Positions 3,097 to 57,211 of a stretch of 64,000 bases of DNA are shown piece by piece. This stretch comes from Candidatus Gottesmanbacteria bacterium RIFCSPLOWO2_01_FULL_42_22 (GTDB lineage Bacteria; Patescibacteriota; Microgenomatia; 2-02-FULL-39-11). Every line of letters begins with the position of its first letter. Position 1 is the stretch's first letter. The notes beneath the pieces were generated by a model. The model searched no databases. It was not told the origin of the DNA and saw only the letters and a list, made by a program, of their open reading frames with translations. The stretch is taken from positions 747 to 64,746 of the forward strand of contig MFJU01000042.1 of NCBI GenBank assembly GCA_001779315.1, given 5' to 3'. The position numbers and the translations under genes were made by a program.

Positions 3097-3228
3097 CTTC
3101 TTTATCTCCTCCCACCTCTGCCTCAATTCACCAACCTGCCTGCCGGCAGGCAGGTATACCTTATGTCCTGAAAAACCCGGATAATTGAACTGAAATCTCG
3201 GGTTTATTAATCCTAGGGATGGGGAGTA
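3097..3228 (+). repeat. intergenic repeat copy C (left module with 20-bp palindrome)
   Basis: CTCCTCCCACCTCTG...CCTGCCTGCCGGCAGGCAGG (3135-3154)...AAAACCCGGATAATTGAACTGAAATCTCGGGTTTATTAATCCTAGGGATGGGGAG. Confidence 0.85.
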
Positions 3229-15289: not shown

Positions 15290-15483
15290 AGCTTCCTAAT
15301 CTCCTCCCACTGTTGTCGTAATTCCCCAACCTGCCTGCCGGCAGGCAGGTATACTTCAAGTCCTGAAACACCCGGATAATTAAGGTGAAATCGCGGGTTT
15401 TTTAATCCCAGGGACGGGGAGCACATTCACTTCGTTCAGTATAAACAATTTCTACGGATTTCTTTGGGTTTCATCGGAATTTC
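15290..15483 (+). repeat. intergenic repeat copy K (full, with palindrome 15330-15349 and 24-bp insertion at junction)
   Basis: CTCCTCCCACTGTTGTCGTAATTCCCCAACCTGCCTGCCGGCAGGCAGG...CGCGGGTTTTTTAATCCCAGGGACGGGGAGCA...ATTTCTACGGATTTCTTTGGGTTTCATCGGAATTT. Confidence 0.85.
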
Positions 15484-16320: not shown

Positions 16321-16458
16321 AGCTTCTTTATTTCCTCCCATCTTAGCCTAAACTCTCCAACCTGCCTGCCGGCAGGCAGGTATACTTCAAATTCTAAAAA
16401 GCCCGGATAAGTGAAGTGAAATCGCGGGTTTATTAATCCTCAGGAGGGGAGCAGGTTG
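16321..16458 (+). repeat. intergenic repeat copy L (left module with palindrome 16361-16380)
   Basis: ...CCAACCTGCCTGCCGGCAGGCAGGTATACTTCAAATTCTAAAAAGCCCGGATAAGTGAAGTGAAATCGCGGGTTTATTAATCCTCAGGAGGGGAGCA. Confidence 0.8.
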
Positions 16459-44028: not shown

Positions 44029-44648
44029 ACTTAACAGGGGAAAGCAAATTTTTTATCGGAATTATTCTTGCGACAGTTGCCATAATTATCGGCGGCGTCT
44101 TTTTCATGTCCAAACCGGAAAAGCTTTTGGAAAAAAGCGAGTTAATCCCTGCCGGCAGCCAAATTAAAGGAAATTCAGAAGCCTCAGATTATCTGGTCGA
44201 GTTTTCAGATTTCCAGTGTCCGGCCTGCGGTGCTTTTTATCCCCAGGTAAAATCTTTAGTTAATGCCAATAAGGATAAATTATCCTTAAGTTACCGGCAT
44301 TTCCCTCTTGATCAGCACAAAATGGCCGTCCCTGCCGCCCTGGCAGCCGAAGCGGCCGCCGAACAGGGCAAGTTTTGGGAAATGCATGACTATATTTTCG
44401 AAAACCAGGCCGGACTTTCCGAGGAAATGCTTCTTTCAGCCGGCGAAAAACTGGGCCTGGACAAAGCCAAATACGAGGAGGCTTACAAAAATAAAAAGTA
44501 TCAGGAAAAAGTTTCCAAGGACCTGGCCGACGGTAAGCGTTTCAGCGTCAATGCCACCCCGACCTTTTTCCTGAACGGCAAAAAACTGAATCCGGTCAAC
44601 TTTGACGACCTCAAACGCTCTGTCGAAGAGGAATTGAAGAAGAATTAA
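44025..44648 (+). CDS. DsbA-like thioredoxin-fold oxidoreductase
   Basis: FSDFQCPACGAFYP CxxC motif; N-terminal TM; translationally coupled to VKOR. Confidence 0.65.
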   Translation: MNLTGESKFFIGIILATVAIIIGGVFFMSKPEKLLEKSELIPAGSQIKGNSEASDYLVEFSDFQCPACGAFYPQVKSLVNANKDKLSLSYRHFPLDQHKMAVPAALAAEAAAEQGKFWEMHDYIFENQAGLSEEMLLSAGEKLGLDKAKYEEAYKNKKYQEKVSKDLADGKRFSVNATPTFFLNGKKLNPVNFDDLKRSVEEELKKN

Positions 44649-49951: not shown

Positions 49952-50383
49952 TTAAAACTCATTGATACTTCTTAGATACTGAAGGAAATTTCCCGGTTTG
50001 ATTATTAAAATCCCCAAATCATTTTCGATTTTGTTTGCTTTGTAATGCCGGCTGTTATGGGACAGTAAGAATTTAGACTTTGATAGGTAAGCTCCGGCAA
50101 CCACATGTGAATCTTCTTCATCAATGACATAATCCCCATAATTTTTGATTAAATCTTTTTTGGTTATATCAAAAGCGATTGTTCTGAGATTGTTGAGGAT
50201 TTTTACGGTGCTCCCAGCTTCAATATTAAGTCTTTTTCCCACTTCTTTTACCTCTTCTGCAACGGTATTGGTAATTATTTTTTCAATTTTGGGAATTTTG
50301 ATGACGTTAAAGGAAGCGCCGGTTTTTGAAAGCAGGGAGGAGATAATGACATCAGTGTCTAAAAAGACCCGGATTTTTGCCAT
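49952..50383 (-). CDS. PIN-domain protein (toxin-like)
   Basis: IRVFLDTDVIISSL N-terminus. Confidence 0.6.
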   Translation of the reverse strand: MAKIRVFLDTDVIISSLLSKTGASFNVIKIPKIEKIITNTVAEEVKEVGKRLNIEAGSTVKILNNLRTIAFDITKKDLIKNYGDYVIDEEDSHVVAGAYLSKSKFLLSHNSRHYKANKIENDLGILIIKPGNFLQYLRSINEF

Positions 50384-50634
50384 AGCTTTTGACGGACATT
50401 TCTGATAGTTTCATTCACTTTTTCCAATCCAGCTTCATCCGTCTTCTGGGCTTTTAATATATCCTCATCCATCCCGGTGAAGACAAAGGAAATTGAACTT
50501 GCGGGAATTCGATACACCTTTCCGATTTTTTTGGCAATAATTTCTCCTCTGCCGATCAGCTCATAAATGGTGTTTTTGCTCAACTGGAGTATTTCTGCGA
50601 CTTGTTCCGGTGTGTACGTTCTTGGATGTAACAT
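50359..50634 (-). CDS. HTH (excisionase/MerR-like HTH_17) putative antitoxin
   Basis: YTPEQVAEILQLSKNTIYELIGRGEI; overlaps the PIN gene. Confidence 0.5.
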   Translation of the reverse strand: MLHPRTYTPEQVAEILQLSKNTIYELIGRGEIIAKKIGKVYRIPASSISFVFTGMDEDILKAQKTDEAGLEKVNETIRNVRQKLWQKSGSF

Positions 50635-50708
50635 GACTATTTTATATCAAACATGACTAAAAATGTCAATATAGTATAAACTCACTGTAAAGGTATGATT
50701 CCCCGAAA

Positions 50709-51080
50709 TTGTTAAATTTCGAGGATTATAAGTCCCCAAAATATGCCGAATTTAAGGAGCCGGTGGTAAACAAAGCGTTTTTACAAGACCATTATTTAGG
50801 TCTTGACATAAGACCTATATATAGGTTAAACTATTGGTATATGATTTCAACATCTATTTCTCAACTTAAAGCAAACCCATCCGCTGTGATTGAACAAGCA
50901 GCCGATTATCCGGTAGCAGTCGAAAGCCGGAATGATGTCAAAGCCTATCTCATCGGTAAAAATCTTTTTGAAAAAATGATTGCATTTATTGAAAATTATG
51001 CAGATGCCGAAGCTGTTAAAAAGGCAGACTTCAAAAGCGGAAAAGACTTAGAAGAAGTAGCCAAAGAACTTGGGATATGA
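50709..51080 (+). CDS. Phd/YefM-type antitoxin
   Basis: ISQLKANPSAVIEQAADYPVAVESRNDVKAYLI; the true start may be the internal Met near 50844. Confidence 0.5.
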   Translation: MLNFEDYKSPKYAEFKEPVVNKAFLQDHYLGLDIRPIYRLNYWYMISTSISQLKANPSAVIEQAADYPVAVESRNDVKAYLIGKNLFEKMIAFIENYADAEAVKKADFKSGKDLEEVAKELGI

Positions 51081-51340
51081 AGATTGTTTTATCTCCTAGG
51101 ACGGAAAAACAGCTCAGAAATCTACCGAAATTTGACCAGATAGCTATAGCAGAGAAAATCCGCAATTTGCCTCAAAGTCAACAGTCAGGGGAAGAAAAAC
51201 TGTCCGGTTTCCCCGGCATCTACAGGGTAAGGGTAGGAAATTACCGAATTGTTTATAAAAAGCTGGCTGATTCTTTCTATATTGTTATAATTCGTCATCG
51301 ACGGGATGTCTACCGCTTAGTCAAAGATTTATTGGGCTAG
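51077..51340 (+). CDS. RelE/ParE-family toxin
   Basis: 87 aa; IYRVRVGNYRIVYKKLADSFYIVIIRHRRDVY; overlaps the antitoxin stop. Confidence 0.7.
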   Translation: MKIVLSPRTEKQLRNLPKFDQIAIAEKIRNLPQSQQSGEEKLSGFPGIYRVRVGNYRIVYKKLADSFYIVIIRHRRDVYRLVKDLLG

Positions 51341-52598
51341 CATACAGATCTTCCAGTTCCTTGACCCCGCCGAAGGCGATGCGGTCAAGAACAAGATCAT
51401 CCATGCCGAGCATTAAAGCAGGGGTAATGACAAATTCGCCGAAACGGTTATTGATTTTGTCGGCGGCATCGGTGACGTCCCTGTTTTTGCTTTTTTCTGT
51501 CCGGAAAAGCTCCTCCTGGACAAATTTTTTCTCGAAGAGTTTAAAACAGCTGACGGCCAGTTTAGCCACTTTTTTCGAAGGATGCGTTTGGTTGTTAAAG
51601 ACCAGCATGACCTTTTTGAACAGTTCTCCCGTGGTATACATTTCGGTCGCAAAAGTTTCCCCCCGGTGCCAATGGGTGTAGTCGGTATAGATAACGGCAA
51701 CATGGATGCCCAAAGCTGTATAACCGTGGCGGCGCAATCTTCGGCCCATTTTTTCCGTCAGTTTCATTAACAACCGGGCCAGCTCTCTTTTATCAGAGGT
51801 GAATTTGCCCAAGGCATAGGACTGTCCGAAGCTTTTGCGCTCAAACTCAATCGCATCAATCTCCCAGCCGCGCAATCTCAAATACCAGTAATGGCCGACA
51901 ATGCTCTGGAAAACCTCTTTGATAAGAAGTTCGCGTGAAGCTTTCAAAAAATCCAAAGGAGTAAAAATGTCCCGGGCGTTGAGTCTGGCCTGAAAGCGCG
52001 TATTGATGCCGCAAAGATCAATCAAAGTTACCCTGTCATAAACTTCCTCCAGGTTTTGCCAGTTGATCGTCTGAAGCCCGTCCGGCTTTTTTAAAGAAGC
52101 CGCCAGTTTGGCCAGAAAGCGGTTGGTGGAGATGCCGACTGAAACGCTAATCCACTCGCCGATTTCCCGTTTAATCCGTTTTTTTATTTCACTGCCGACA
52201 TCCTCAAGGCTTTTATTTTTTATTTGGCAGCCGCTAAAATCCAGGACTGCCTCGTCAATAGATTTGGGAAAAACGTCGGGTGAATATTCCTTGAAGATCC
52301 GGCTGAATTTCAAATGAACATCCCTGTATTTGGGAGGATCAGGCGGCCGCACGATTATTTGAGGACAAAGAAGTCGGGCTTCCCGCACCGTCATGCCGAC
52401 CCTAACCCCGTACCTTTTAGCTTCAATTGAGGGAGCGATGACACAGCCGTTGCCGGTGGTGTAGGCAGCTACAGCTACCGGTTTGCCGCGCAGCAGTGGA
52501 TTGGCCTGCTGTTCGGCGGTGGCAAAACAGGAGTTCATGTCAATATGCATGACCAGGGGCAAGTTGCGGTTAAGAGGCAAGTCCATCGCTGACCTCAT
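51321..52598 (-). CDS. Y-family DNA polymerase (DinB/UmuC-like)
   Basis: MHIDMNSCFATAEQQANPLLRGKPVAV N-terminal catalytic motif. Start placed at Met 52598 or 52586; the track's 52724 start overlaps the upstream ORF. Confidence 0.8.
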   Translation of the reverse strand: MRSAMDLPLNRNLPLVMHIDMNSCFATAEQQANPLLRGKPVAVAAYTTGNGCVIAPSIEAKRYGVRVGMTVREARLLCPQIIVRPPDPPKYRDVHLKFSRIFKEYSPDVFPKSIDEAVLDFSGCQIKNKSLEDVGSEIKKRIKREIGEWISVSVGISTNRFLAKLAASLKKPDGLQTINWQNLEEVYDRVTLIDLCGINTRFQARLNARDIFTPLDFLKASRELLIKEVFQSIVGHYWYLRLRGWEIDAIEFERKSFGQSYALGKFTSDKRELARLLMKLTEKMGRRLRRHGYTALGIHVAVIYTDYTHWHRGETFATEMYTTGELFKKVMLVFNNQTHPSKKVAKLAVSCFKLFEKKFVQEELFRTEKSKNRDVTDAADKINNRFGEFVITPALMLGMDDLVLDRIAFGGVKELEDLYASPINL

Positions 52599-52842
52599 CA
52601 AGTCTCCAAAAAAGAGTTTCCGTATCCAGTTCAAGCCGGAAAGCCAGCGAATTGTTGGAGACTGAGAAAATATGGAGAAGTTTTTTGCCCTGTTTGACTT
52701 TGTGGTGGTAGCCGATCTTGTCAATTATGTAGATGCGGCCCTGCCATTTGATTTTTTGGGGCATGACCGTCCTTTTTTCCCGGTCAAAAACCGTCACCAC
52801 GCTGATTTTTTCGTTGATTTTTTCGTTCATAAAATCGCTCAA
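52570..52842 (-). CDS. small protein between lexA and the Y-family polymerase (possible polymerase accessory, YolD-like?)
   Basis: 90-aa ORF in operon position; no confident family. Confidence 0.3.
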   Translation of the reverse strand: MSDFMNEKINEKISVVTVFDREKRTVMPQKIKWQGRIYIIDKIGYHHKVKQGKKLLHIFSVSNNSLAFRLELDTETLFWRLDEVSDGLAS

Positions 52843-52860
52843 AATGACACGTAACTCTTT

Positions 52861-53433
52861 TCAGTGATATTTCCGGATGACCGAGATGACAATGCCGAAA
52901 ATGATGAGATTTTCTTTCGGATACAGGGGTTTGTATTTGCTGTTGCCTGCTGAGAGAAAAACGAGATTATCTTTTTTGCGGAAATACTTGAGAGTGAATT
53001 CATCATCAATTGCCGCCACCACGATATCGCCCTCTTTAGGTTGGCGGCCCTTTTCCACAATCACCATATCGCCTTCGTGGATGCCGGCCTCAATCATCGA
53101 ATCCCCTGAAACCCTAAGAAGATATGATCTTTCGGGGCGGGCAATCAGATAGTCATCAAAGGAAACGGCAGACAGAAGCTGCTCTTCGGCGGCTGTCGGA
53201 CTGCCGGCGCGGATAATACCTAAAACAGGCAGGGAGGGAAAAAGCTGTTTCGGCATAAGTTTGCCGGTAGAGTCCTTCCCCAATATGCCGGCTTCGATGA
53301 GTTTGGCCGCCAATTTAAAACTGGCTCCCTTGGAAGAGAAACCGAAAAGACGGCACATTTCCTGATAAGAGGGGAGACGCTTGTTTTTGCGGAAAAAGCG
53401 GCGGATTTTCTGTACAGCAGACTCAAGATTCAT
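52861..53433 (-). CDS. lexA: LexA repressor
   Basis: N-terminal wHTH; S24 peptidase motifs VSGDSM and GDIVVAAIDDEFTLK; perfect GAAC-N4-GTTC box upstream. Confidence 0.8.
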   Translation of the reverse strand: MNLESAVQKIRRFFRKNKRLPSYQEMCRLFGFSSKGASFKLAAKLIEAGILGKDSTGKLMPKQLFPSLPVLGIIRAGSPTAAEEQLLSAVSFDDYLIARPERSYLLRVSGDSMIEAGIHEGDMVIVEKGRQPKEGDIVVAAIDDEFTLKYFRKKDNLVFLSAGNSKYKPLYPKENLIIFGIVISVIRKYH

Positions 53434-53452
53434 AGCTTACAAGATTATCATA

Positions 53453-53468
53453 GTGAACGATCGTTCAC
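53453..53468. promoter_or_regulatory. LexA box (Cheo-type GAAC-N4-GTTC), perfect 16-bp palindrome GTGAACGATCGTTCAC
   Basis: Lies 20 bp upstream of the lexA start codon, in the divergent lexA/flavodoxin intergenic region. Confidence 0.7.
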
Positions 53469-53515
53469 CTGTCAAGGGGAAGAAGCGCTTGTCAGAAAAA
53501 GTCAGGTATAGTAGT

Positions 53516-53992
53516 ATGGAGAATATGAAAATTCTGATTGTTTATGCTACCAATTCCGGCGGGACACAACTGGCCGCCCAGATAGTCCAGGAAACCCTGG
53601 TCAAACACAGTCTGACGGCAGAACTTAAAGAAGTCAGGGATACTTCGGCTGATGAATTTGCGGGATATGATTTAGTGATTCTTTCTTCTCCGAGTTGGGA
53701 TGATGAAGGAGCTGAAGGACAGCCTCATCCTGACTGGCGGCCGTTTATGGAGAAAGCAAAAGGCAAGGATATGTCGGGCAAAAAATTTGCCGTCATAGGA
53801 CTGGGAGATTCCTCTTATACTTATTTTTGCGGTGCGGTAAAAATTTTGGAAGATTTCATCAAATCCCTCAAAGGCGAACTGCTGACGGAATCCCTTAAAA
53901 TTGACGGATTCTATCTAGACCAGCAGAAAAGTTCCCTTCAACTGACAGATTGGACAGACAATTTGGCATCACGGCTTCAAGGGGCATCCTAA
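53516..53992 (+). CDS. flavodoxin
   Basis: KILIVYATNSGGTQ...LVILSSPSWDDEG. Start at Met 53516 preferred over the track's 53381. Confidence 0.7.
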   Translation: MENMKILIVYATNSGGTQLAAQIVQETLVKHSLTAELKEVRDTSADEFAGYDLVILSSPSWDDEGAEGQPHPDWRPFMEKAKGKDMSGKKFAVIGLGDSSYTYFCGAVKILEDFIKSLKGELLTESLKIDGFYLDQQKSSLQLTDWTDNLASRLQGAS

Positions 53993-55112: not shown

Positions 55113-55577
55113 TTATCTGGTTACAGAAATATCAACGGCTGGTATTTCGGTAAAAGGCGCCGAGACTGTTACCCTATTATCTGCTGTTTGCACAACCTGA
55201 TATCCGGTGTTATAGGCTGATCCTACCGTACAGTCTGTAATATTGTTTCCTCCAAGAGATGGATCTGGATCTTGTGGAAGAGCAGCAATATAGCGGGTGA
55301 TCAGATCCGTGCAAATATTGGCACCGGCTTCACTGATATTTTGGGCAGTGCCTGTAATACCAACTGGTAGAGCTCCCTTGTTATCTGCTGCATACTGATG
55401 GATGGCGTTTAAAATAGTATTAACATCACTGGCTCTTTTTGTGTCATTCGCCTGGGAGAATTGCCTGGCCGGATTAATGGCGATTAAGGTGATAGCCAAA
55501 AGCGTGGCCAGAATTCCGATAACAACCAGGAGTTCGATTAAGGTAAAACCCCGGTTGCGGGCAGAGAATTTTTTCAA
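55113..55577 (-). CDS. type IV pilin (PilA-like)
   Basis: Prepilin leader and GFTLIELLVVIGI N-terminal helix. Confidence 0.7.
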   Translation of the reverse strand: MKKFSARNRGFTLIELLVVIGILATLLAITLIAINPARQFSQANDTKRASDVNTILNAIHQYAADNKGALPVGITGTAQNISEAGANICTDLITRYIAALPQDPDPSLGGNNITDCTVGSAYNTGYQVVQTADNRVTVSAPFTEIPAVDISVTR

Positions 55578-55675
55578 AATTAATCACCCCCCTTCGCCCC
55601 GATTTAATCGGGGCAAATCCTTCTATTTCCAGGCTACTATGGATTTGAGCTTGTTGTCAAGATGAATTAGCAATT

Positions 55676-56359
55676 TTATCCGGCTGACTGACGGTAGAGC
55701 ATAAAAAGCAGAAAGGAAAAAAGCAGGACAAAGACACCCAGAAGGAGGTAAACCCGGTTTAAACCCATGACCTTTTTTTCCGGTTCTTTCGGTTTGTGTG
55801 CTTCCTCTGCCAAACCGGCGATCATAGTCTGCTCTTTGAGGTAATCAGTTTTGGCCAATAAAAAACCGACGGACGGTGCATCTAAAGTCGTAAGATTCAT
55901 GCCGGTTACAGAAGACGGAATGACTGTAAAAACGGTAAAACCGCGATTTTTGAAAGTTTCCATAAATACCTGCAGAAAATCAATATTGGCGGCCGATAGC
56001 AAAAACCCTTTTTCCAGTTTGTAAATCTTATGAACATTATTTTCGAAAGGCAGATGATAAAGGAAATCTTCGATGATATTTTTCTGAAGATCCTCTTTCT
56101 CTTCGCTGAAATTTTTTTCAAAGGTAATCTGGGGGGATAAAATAAAGATGAGCCTGGCCGGAGGCAGTTTGTGGTAATTGATAAAAAGCTTCAATTGCAT
56201 TTCCAGCTCTTTACTGTTGACAATTTCCATAAACCTAACCAGTTTGTCCGGGTAATTATAGACGGCTATTTGGTTGTTTACCGAGTTAAAATAAACGAGT
56301 TTGTCTCTGTCCAAAAAAACAACGGCTAAATTTTGAAGGCTTTTCATATCAGGGAACAT
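55676..56359 (-). CDS. hypothetical pilus-associated protein with C-terminal TM anchor
   Basis: Position in the pilus operon; one TM helix. Confidence 0.3.
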   Translation of the reverse strand: MFPDMKSLQNLAVVFLDRDKLVYFNSVNNQIAVYNYPDKLVRFMEIVNSKELEMQLKLFINYHKLPPARLIFILSPQITFEKNFSEEKEDLQKNIIEDFLYHLPFENNVHKIYKLEKGFLLSAANIDFLQVFMETFKNRGFTVFTVIPSSVTGMNLTTLDAPSVGFLLAKTDYLKEQTMIAGLAEEAHKPKEPEKKVMGLNRVYLLLGVFVLLFSFLLFMLYRQSAG

Positions 56360-56729
56360 CCTTCCAAGAGATTAGGCTGATTATATTATTATTCAAATTA
56401 AGATTTACCTCCACCCTTTTTTTCTTATTGCCGTAGTTGGCTTGGGCTGAAACAGTCTTGTCGGTTAATCCTGTAACGGTGATTTGGCAGTTTCCCTCAT
56501 TGATATCCAGTGATTCTCCCGAATAGGCAGGATTGCGGATAAGGCGGATAATGGCATTTTCAATACAGGAATCGGCAATGGATTTGGCACTGTCACCTGA
56601 AATTAATAAAGTCGATGAGGCAGAACCCAGAATCATTAAAGATACGGCCGCCGTGATAACGGTGACAGCCAAAACCATCAGAAACATTAATATTACCAGA
56701 GCGAATCCGCCCGAATTATTTTTTTTCAT
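56349..56729 (-). CDS. pseudopilin-like protein
   Basis: N-terminal hydrophobic helix GFALVILMFLMVLAV. Confidence 0.4.
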   Translation of the reverse strand: MKKNNSGGFALVILMFLMVLAVTVITAAVSLMILGSASSTLLISGDSAKSIADSCIENAIIRLIRNPAYSGESLDINEGNCQITVTGLTDKTVSAQANYGNKKKRVEVNLNLNNNIISLISWKDVP

Positions 56730-57211
56730 CTTAAAGATGCGGTTAAAGCGTAATTTGCAGTTCTCGCCTCTCCCGCTTCCAAAATCAGACTTTGCAATTC
56801 AAATTCTATTTTGACAGCCGGTTTTCCCGTAATATTGCCGATTCTTCTGACTGTAAAACTGTTTAAAGCCGTACCATAGCCGTTTAATTTTCCGCTGACA
56901 ATACCATTATTATAGAAAAGATTGGATCCTGAAAGGAAAAAATCGTGTGTCTGGCCTGCCTGTTCGAGAGAAATATCGGATGCGACATCTCCGGGATTAG
57001 CCGGAACTTGGATATTATCGGCCTGATATATTTCATTGGTCAGTTTTTTAATAATAAACATGGCGTCCTGGGAGCTTAAAGAGGTGGAAGCCGATTCTTT
57101 TTGCAGATCAAGAACTGAGGCGATCAGCTGAGCGACAATAATCAGAAAGGAAAAAAGCAGAAAACCATAGAGAATTGTTTCGATTAAGGTTGAGCCTTTA
57201 TTGAATTTCAT
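56726..57211 (-). CDS. minor pilin/pseudopilin
   Basis: STLIETILYGFLLFSFLII prepilin-like N-terminus. Confidence 0.5.
   Translation of the reverse strand: MKFNKGSTLIETILYGFLLFSFLIIVAQLIASVLDLQKESASTSLSSQDAMFIIKKLTNEIYQADNIQVPANPGDVASDISLEQAGQTHDFFLSGSNLFYNNGIVSGKLNGYGTALNSFTVRRIGNITGKPAVKIEFELQSLILEAGEARTANYALTASLR

Follow-up and report, generated by a model that had tools for sequence, protein, structure and literature searches.

The ImuB-C superfamily was described as a beta domain of ~80 residues which ImuB carries at its C-terminus and which also exists as a standalone protein, the standalone prototype being Geobacter GSU0042 (PMC3765255). According to the same study, the standalone form is encoded most often together with DinB and often with LexA, and the domain contains a conserved C-terminal Trp and conserved basic residues but no catalytic pattern. 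ImuB-C has also been presented as a beta-barrel of a novel fold without relatives in the PDB, structurally unlike the SH3 core common to UmuD' and YqjX (PMC12926913). A Geobacter lexA–imuB-C–polY operon is treated in PMC6511836, which refers to earlier work reporting damage induction and a single transcription unit, and complexes of PolY, ImuB-C and RecA have been proposed by Timinskas and Venclovas (PMC6511836, PMC12926913). Here we analysed 64,000 nt (the whole stretch, hereafter the window) of a contig of Candidatus Gottesmanbacteria (Patescibacteria), which carries on its minus strand a three-gene unit (51321-53475) composed, in this order, of lexA, a small open reading frame (ORF) and a Y-family polymerase gene. 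We consider it probable that this unit is a LexA-autorepressed SOS operon of the lexA–imuB-C–polY type. It represents no new kind of system, as cassettes of this type have already been described in other phyla (Geobacter).

The first gene of the unit (52861-53433, minus strand) encodes a protein of 190 aa, which scored 122.9 bits against the LexA model TIGR00498 (cut-off 110.95; the alignment spans residues 9-189) and contains a Peptidase_S24 domain (E 7e-28). The identical protein in NCBI carries the name LexA repressor; the accession of Gottesmanbacteria LexA is KKS47685.1. The motifs RAGS, GDSM and TLKY were located at positions 75, 110 and 147, respectively. The linker contains the Ala76-Gly77 cleavage site (…GIIRA76-G77SP…), which appears as (K/R/H)AG in relatives, and the Ser/Lys dyad consists of Ser112 (GDSM) and Lys149 (TLK).

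Upstream of lexA lies the perfect palindrome GTGAACGATCGTTCAC (53453-53468), with arms GTGAAC and GTTCAC around GATC. It is separated from the lexA ATG (53433) by 19 nt, which confirms the palindrome that the first-pass annotation had placed at 20 bp. Its Cheo-type core GAACGATCGTTC (53455-53466), a form of LexA box defined for Firmicutes and Actinobacteria (PMC4951493), is the sole exact match to GAAC-N4-GTTC in the window. Scanning of the minus strand revealed a sigma-70-type promoter (53447-53475; 11/12 matches) with a -35 hexamer TTGACA (53475-53470), a 17-nt spacer and a -10 hexamer TATGAT (53452-53447), and 16 of the 17 spacer positions are taken up by the palindrome. We predict that the palindrome is a LexA operator placed within the lexA promoter.

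In the window, 13 nt separate the -10 hexamer from the lexA ATG, without an obvious Shine-Dalgarno sequence (53434-53452), while in many relatives the distance from the -10 hexamer to the operon's first ATG is only 6-7 nt, which points to leaderless mRNAs there.

Could such a palindrome have arisen by chance, or serve as the operator of another regulator, e.g. a TetR-family protein? The bare core is by itself unremarkable, with ~0.8 exact sites per 64 kb expected from a composition-based estimate. Near-matches are not enriched (16 cores with one mismatch against 20 expected), and the window contains five perfect 16-nt palindromes. However, with a 20-nt weight matrix built from the boxes of relatives, the site GTGAACGATCGTTCAC scored 29.8 bits, while the runner-up in the window reached 9.1 and the maxima over 50 shuffles had a mean of 9.4 and a highest value of 17.0. 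No second candidate LexA box was found in the 64-kb window. The significance of the box therefore rests on its weight-matrix score, its place in the promoter spacer and its conservation at orthologous loci, and not on the frequency of the bare core.

This conservation was examined in 22 loci obtained by a pattern-based scan of species-representative genomes, mostly from Microgenomates-group Patescibacteria. An extended box, G-T-(G/A)-A-A-C-N4-G-T-T-(C/T)-A-C, is present in 12 of the 22, where it is flanked by TTGAC(A/T) and TA..AT hexamers; the promoter design seen in relatives is TTGACA-box-TA(c/t)(a/g)AT. The small ORF and the polymerase gene are adjacent in 21/22 loci, and lexA precedes them in 14/22. 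In loci without lexA (L004, L005, L014, L015, L017 and L022) the box is found directly before the small ORF, and the pair of small ORF and polymerase would therefore itself be the regulated target.

Other operators were also encountered. Loci L006, L009, L011, L013 and L016 carry, upstream of lexA, two tandem CCGTACGTTCGTACGG-like copies instead of the GAAC-N4-GTTC box, and the operator of L003 is GGAAAC-N4-GTTTCC. Helix 3 of LexA, the predicted recognition helix, reads 'SK.ASFK' at GAAC-type loci and 'SKGS.QYLV' at GTAC-type loci. The operator type thus tracks helix 3, as expected if the palindromes are LexA operators, and within Patescibacteria operator and repressor seem to have co-evolved. 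L001 (Gottesmanbacteria GW2011_GWA2_43_14), the closest relative, has an additional ORF of ~55 aa (L001 3238-3405) between the operator/promoter and lexA; this ORF is absent from the window.

Independently of these genome loci, metagenomes were scanned for promoter plus box with the pattern TTGACA-N0-3-GTGAAC-N4-GTTCACTA. At least 120 metagenome stretches matched. Among the listed matches with a scorable ORF (n=72), the first downstream ORF was lexA in 27, the small ORF in 15, polY in two and recA in one (45/72 in total), and the architectures seen among the matches listed included lexA–polY, small–polY and small–polY–lexA. The palindrome, whose conservation in relatives the first-pass annotation had made decisive for its reading, is thus kept both in 12/22 genome loci and in metagenomes.

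Other genes were also found behind the pattern, among them tyrosine recombinases with an N-terminal SAM-like domain (L031, L044, L048, L077, L078, L100), TetR-family regulators (L042, L045, L047, L049, L054, L108) and a Vsr endonuclease (L107). For these three classes a single representative each was analysed with Pfam, and the remaining loci were assigned by visual inspection of their sequences. The tyrosine recombinases resemble integron integrases, a class which we take to be LexA-controlled. The presence of recombinase and TetR genes means that LexA targets are not all that the pattern marks, and the several matches in front of TetR genes are what an operator of a TetR-family protein would predict. 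Such an operator, or chance, would nevertheless have to account for the position in the promoter spacer, the conservation of the box, its move to the small ORF where lexA is absent, its covariation with helix 3 of LexA and the downstream over-representation of lexA, imuB-C, polY and recA; we regard either explanation as extremely improbable. The LexA model, the box, the promoter and their conservation together support the proposal, already made in the first-pass annotation, of a LexA-autoregulated and presumably damage-inducible translesion cassette.

The last gene of the unit (51321-52598, minus strand; 425 aa) encodes a Y-family DNA polymerase with IMS (E 1.7e-41) and IMS_C (E 2.6e-11) domains. 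The catalytic motifs HIDMNS (aa 18-23) and SIDEA (aa 113-117) are kept, including D20 and D115-E116, and the enzyme is predicted to be catalytically active. Since these motifs are intact and the ImuB-C-type domain is encoded by a separate gene (see below), the protein is not an inactive ImuB. The start of the polymerase was said to overlap the small ORF, and it does: it lies most likely at ATG 52598, with an overlap of 29 nt, a value that agrees with the tblastn coordinates obtained for relatives (an alternative start, ATG 52586, would leave 17 nt). DinB-type NCBIfam models gave ~200 bits, all under their cut-offs (the best 206.8 vs 367), and the UmuC model NF002955 gave 72 bits against a cut-off of 431. 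By these scores the polymerase appears DinB-like and belongs to a distinct PolY subgroup, not to UmuC.

The small ORF was called by the ORF finder as 90 aa from TTG 52842, 18 nt past the lexA stop, and was described in this way in the first-pass annotation. The ORF is indeed there, but most of the listed homologues are 86 aa long, with a start matching ATG 52830. The predicted gene therefore spans 52570-52830 (minus strand) and encodes 86 aa, which sets the gap after lexA at 30 nt. An identical 86-aa protein is deposited in NCBI (KKS47686.1, hypothetical protein, Candidatus Gottesmanbacteria). At E<=1e-3 the family comprises 666 representatives; among the members listed there is no functional name, nor any Pfam domain over the region of the small protein. 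NCBIfam and PADLOC scans of the ORF gave no matches, and tblastn against plasmids and phages returned only noise.

The AlphaFold2 model of the small protein is all-beta, with seven strands (pLDDT 91). It had no meaningful match among PDB or viral structures, and a sequence-profile search of the PDB with the protein found nothing. Over 95 sequences two tryptophans, W75 and W29, hardly vary, the latter within a stretch rich in K/R; there is no catalytic pattern. The only recurrent Pfam signal, sub-threshold, was DUF6504 (9/18 family members).

The layout had been likened to lexA/yolD/umuC-type operons, i.e. a Pol V-like cassette whose small ORF would be a homologue of YolD, the UmuD analogue. 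With a Cheo-type box in front and a small gene that lies immediately upstream of the Y-family polymerase gene and overlaps it, the order does recall yolD-uvrX and yqjX-yqjW, and the active site of the polymerase begins with a UmuC-like D-x-N-S. Nevertheless, the small ORF had no match to YolD (PF08863) in Pfam at E<=10, nor did any of 18 relatives, and its hhalign comparison with an SPbeta-type YolD (a reference checked as PF08863, E 4e-27) gave a probability of 0.4%. The profile search that had been suggested for YolD or DUF4113 thus yielded no YolD, while DUF4113 appeared only in the polymerase tail of one relative, as a weak match (E 0.04). With the UmuC score so far under its cut-off, a lexA/yolD/umuC-type cassette is very improbable here, and as a claim of homology the YolD assignment is largely refuted by these comparisons.

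Among plasmid sequences, the window polymerase was matched best by a polymerase of Geobacter anodireducens plasmid pSD (33% identity), which is encoded in the arrangement lexA, 84-aa gene, polymerase. When the 84-aa pSD protein was aligned as a single sequence with the profile of the window small protein, hhalign gave 97.9% over the full length; family against family, the result was 98.7% (E 4.5e-16, full length), at an identity of ~26% between the window and Geobacter small proteins. The sub-threshold DUF6504 signal recurs in 13/14 Geobacter-type small proteins, and in a bona fide ImuB (from an Agrobacterium imuA–imuB–dnaE2 cassette) DUF6504 was detected at residues 427-481 (E 0.004, below the gathering score). 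The homology of the Geobacter small protein, the common DUF6504 signal and the published description of ImuB-C lead us to assign the small ORF, with good confidence, to the standalone ImuB-C group. Moreover, the all-beta model without PDB relatives agrees with the novel-fold beta-barrel reported for ImuB-C (PMC12926913).

Three observations accompanied this comparison. The pSD polymerase gene (L027 2501-3645) was matched as two separate pieces, beneath which the annotation shows no more than a 'hypothetical protein'; this suggests a frameshift or an annotation gap. A plasmid match named 'ImpB' from Salipiger, considered as a candidate ImuB, lies outside any mutasome cassette and was dropped. 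A homology search started from the Geobacter small protein found unnamed proteins only and did not reach GSU0042.

The window operon therefore resembles the Geobacter sulfurreducens-type lexA–imuB-C–polY ('GeoPolY-like') cassette in its order of lexA, an all-beta protein of ~85 aa and an active Y-family polymerase, in the homology of the small proteins and in having Geobacter pSD as the best plasmid match of its polymerase. It differs in belonging to another phylum, Patescibacteria, and in its operator, GAAC-N4-GTTC, whereas that of Geobacter LexA is cited as GGTT-N10-AACC in PMC8565304.

How the small protein might work with the polymerase is indicated by the C-terminal extension of the latter, in which an alignment of 14 orthologues revealed three conserved elements past the little-finger domain. 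The first is a Q[LM]x[LI]F column present in most relatives, represented in the window by QEELF (51504-51518, minus strand); by its resemblance to the canonical QL[SD]LF, it is a putative beta-clamp-binding motif. The second is K-x-R-K-V-s-D-A-a-D-K-i-N-D-r-Y-G-E-F (in the window …KNRDVTDAADKINNRFGEF…, 51432-51476, minus strand), which is kept in relatives. The sole local alignment that hhalign gave with E. coli RecA fell, in register, on RecA residues 4-27, the RecA-NT element, and it was weak (E 0.04, 1.3% probability). The third is the tail DRIAFG(G) (51366-51386, minus strand), in which DRIAFG is invariant in 14/14 aligned relatives.

The RecA-NT motif has been defined as a helix-Gly-strand element homologous to RecA's N-terminus, and the tails of UmuC and YqjW, which bind the small subunit, have the layout of a RecA-NT-like motif followed by a conserved tail (PMC6511836). 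The C-terminal layout of the window polymerase matches that of UmuC and YqjW; this is the ground for proposing a PolY–ImuB-C–RecA assembly, in which DRIAFG would be a candidate docking site for the small subunit.

We propose that a LexA dimer would bind GTGAAC-N4-GTTCAC between the -35 and -10 hexamers and thereby block RNA polymerase. Upon DNA damage, RecA filaments would stimulate self-cleavage of LexA at Ala76-Gly77 via Ser112/Lys149, and the operon would be derepressed. Owing to the conserved 29-nt gene overlap, the 86-aa all-beta standalone ImuB-C protein and the polymerase would then be produced jointly, and the small protein would most likely serve the active enzyme as an accessory subunit without catalytic activity. 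With its clamp-binding-like motif, RecA-NT-like motif and DRIAFG tail, the polymerase might form with it a Pol V-like PolY–ImuB-C–RecA translesion complex. The binding of LexA, the induction by damage and every protein-protein contact in this scheme are steps that we infer.

The small protein might, alternatively, be no polymerase subunit at all but a free sensor of DNA damage or DNA structure which recruits repair factors, as Aravind et al. proposed for ImuB-C. It is basic (pI 9.5), and, as published for the superfamily, its Trp and basic positions are conserved while a catalytic pattern is absent. Distant homologues (101-112 aa, 25-30% identity) are, moreover, not located beside polymerases (L025 4001-4339; L026 2987-3325; L024 4001-4306), and the domain is therefore not exclusively a polymerase partner. 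Set against this are the near-obligate linkage to the polymerase in Patescibacteria, the conserved 29-nt overlap and published modelling in which the same domain of ImuB forms the protein-protein interface with DnaE2 and ImuA (PMC12926913). We consider a free sensor rather unlikely, and an accessory subunit of the polymerase remains our preferred role for the protein.

The neighbourhoods of two distant homologues deserve mention. One lies behind a CBASS-like pair (an oligonucleotide cyclase and a 4TM effector), within a defence island that also contains Fic and a type I restriction-modification system. A functional link to CBASS was rejected, as the cyclase and the 4TM effector make a complete pair by themselves and a gap separates them from the small gene, which leaves adjacency only. 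Another was found behind two 537-aa genes of no known kind, near ParA and integrase.

Several points weigh against a lexA–imuB-C–polY operon, including the distant homologues just mentioned. The N-terminal domain of LexA has no match to Pfam LexA_DNA_bind, even at E<=10, whereas the Geobacter plasmid LexA does match it; the DNA-binding domain of the window protein appears to be too divergent for this model. All DUF6504 matches are below the gathering score, and the match of the small-protein profile to Agrobacterium ImuB is weak (residues 427-444, E 0.046), although it falls in the same region as DUF6504. The pSD small protein was placed in the GSU0042 family by operon context and genus. The RecA-NT and clamp motifs are short, with matches below statistical significance, and in the Gottesmanbacteria lineage the cassette is known here from sequence alone.

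The operon can also be set beside other translesion modules. Like Bacillus yolD-uvrX and yqjX-yqjW, the putative Gram-positive counterpart of Pol V, it has a small gene directly upstream of a Y-family polymerase, a Cheo-type LexA box and a polymerase C-terminus with a RecA-NT-like motif followed by a conserved tail; it differs in that the small proteins are unrelated in sequence and the published ImuB-C barrel is distinct from the SH3 core of UmuD' and YqjX. It recalls the ImuA–ImuB–DnaE2 mutasome in its small protein, which appears to match the ImuB C-terminal domain (sub-threshold DUF6504 in both), but imuA and dnaE2 are missing, ImuB-C is a separate protein and the polymerase retains the catalytic Asp/Glu that ImuB does not. 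In E. coli umuDC (Pol V), too, an error-prone polymerase and its small partner are repressed by LexA, and the dependence on RecA is probably common to both; however, the window cassette has no UmuD (S24) partner, its only S24 protein being LexA, and the polymerase scores far under the UmuC cut-off. No recA was found in the 64-kb window.

These results correct a mis-annotation, since the small gene, now labelled 'hypothetical protein', is most probably of the ImuB-C type and not YolD- or UmuD-like. They also extend the lexA–imuB-C–polY cassette to Patescibacteria, in support of the published view of translesion synthesis as the conserved core of the SOS response. A small, well-folded and conserved protein together with its polymerase offers a compact pair for approaching the role of standalone ImuB-C, which has been a question since 2013. 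The SOS network of Patescibacteria (LexA motif and regulon) was reportedly the subject of work by Sanchez-Osuna, Barbe and Erill (Environ Microbiol, 2017), which probably covers this motif and operon as well.

A bolder proposal, possible though in our opinion doubtful, is that in these ultra-small genomes the SOS regulon has shrunk to little more than this operon, with a minimal Pol V-like mutasome (PolY–ImuB-C–RecA) in which the 86-aa ImuB-C protein, of a fold unseen in solved structures, is an obligate subunit without catalytic activity, and with the sister lineages that pass from GAAC to GTAC operators, along with changes in LexA helix 3, forming a natural series. If this is true, these lineages could be used for studying the evolution of LexA specificity.

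The divergent neighbour of lexA (53516-53992, plus strand) encodes a short-chain flavodoxin (Flavodoxin_1, E 1.2e-22), for which co-regulation within the SOS response had been suggested. The box lies in the 82-bp intergenic region common to both genes, 47 nt before the flavodoxin ATG, and the arrangement is kept in L001; the box might therefore be thought to repress the flavodoxin gene as well. The sole promoter-like site on the flavodoxin strand (TTGTCA 53489 / TAGTAT 53517; 9/12 matches), however, begins 20 bp past the box, and LexA bound there would therefore not overlap, and so not occlude, the flavodoxin promoter. Among the 22 loci, lexA and flavodoxin are adjacent only in L001, the nearest relative. 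Co-regulation of the flavodoxin gene is possible but unsupported, and we judge its membership in the SOS regulon to be improbable.

Around the 3' end of the polymerase gene (49952-51340) we identified two toxin-antitoxin-like pairs. One is composed of PIN (49952-50383) and HTH_17 (50359-50634) genes on the minus strand, the other of Phd/YefM (50844-51080) and ParE (51077-51340) genes on the plus strand, and the region of the ParE stop overlaps the end of the convergent polymerase gene by 20 nt. Further along the window (55113-57211, minus strand), small genes in a row encode products with prepilin-like N-termini, e.g. MKKFSARNRGFTLIELLVVIGILA, which suggests a putative type IV pilin or pseudopilin cluster.

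The window also contains three exact copies of the GC-rich perfect palindrome TGCCTGCCGGCAGGCA (3137-3152, 15332-15347 and 16363-16378), where none would be expected by chance, and a fourth copy with two mismatches (44146-44161). The palindrome may represent either a REP-like element or a terminator hairpin. Sequences akin to it, cctgcctgcc(g/a)gcaggcagg, occur in the intergenic DNA of relatives L004 and L010.

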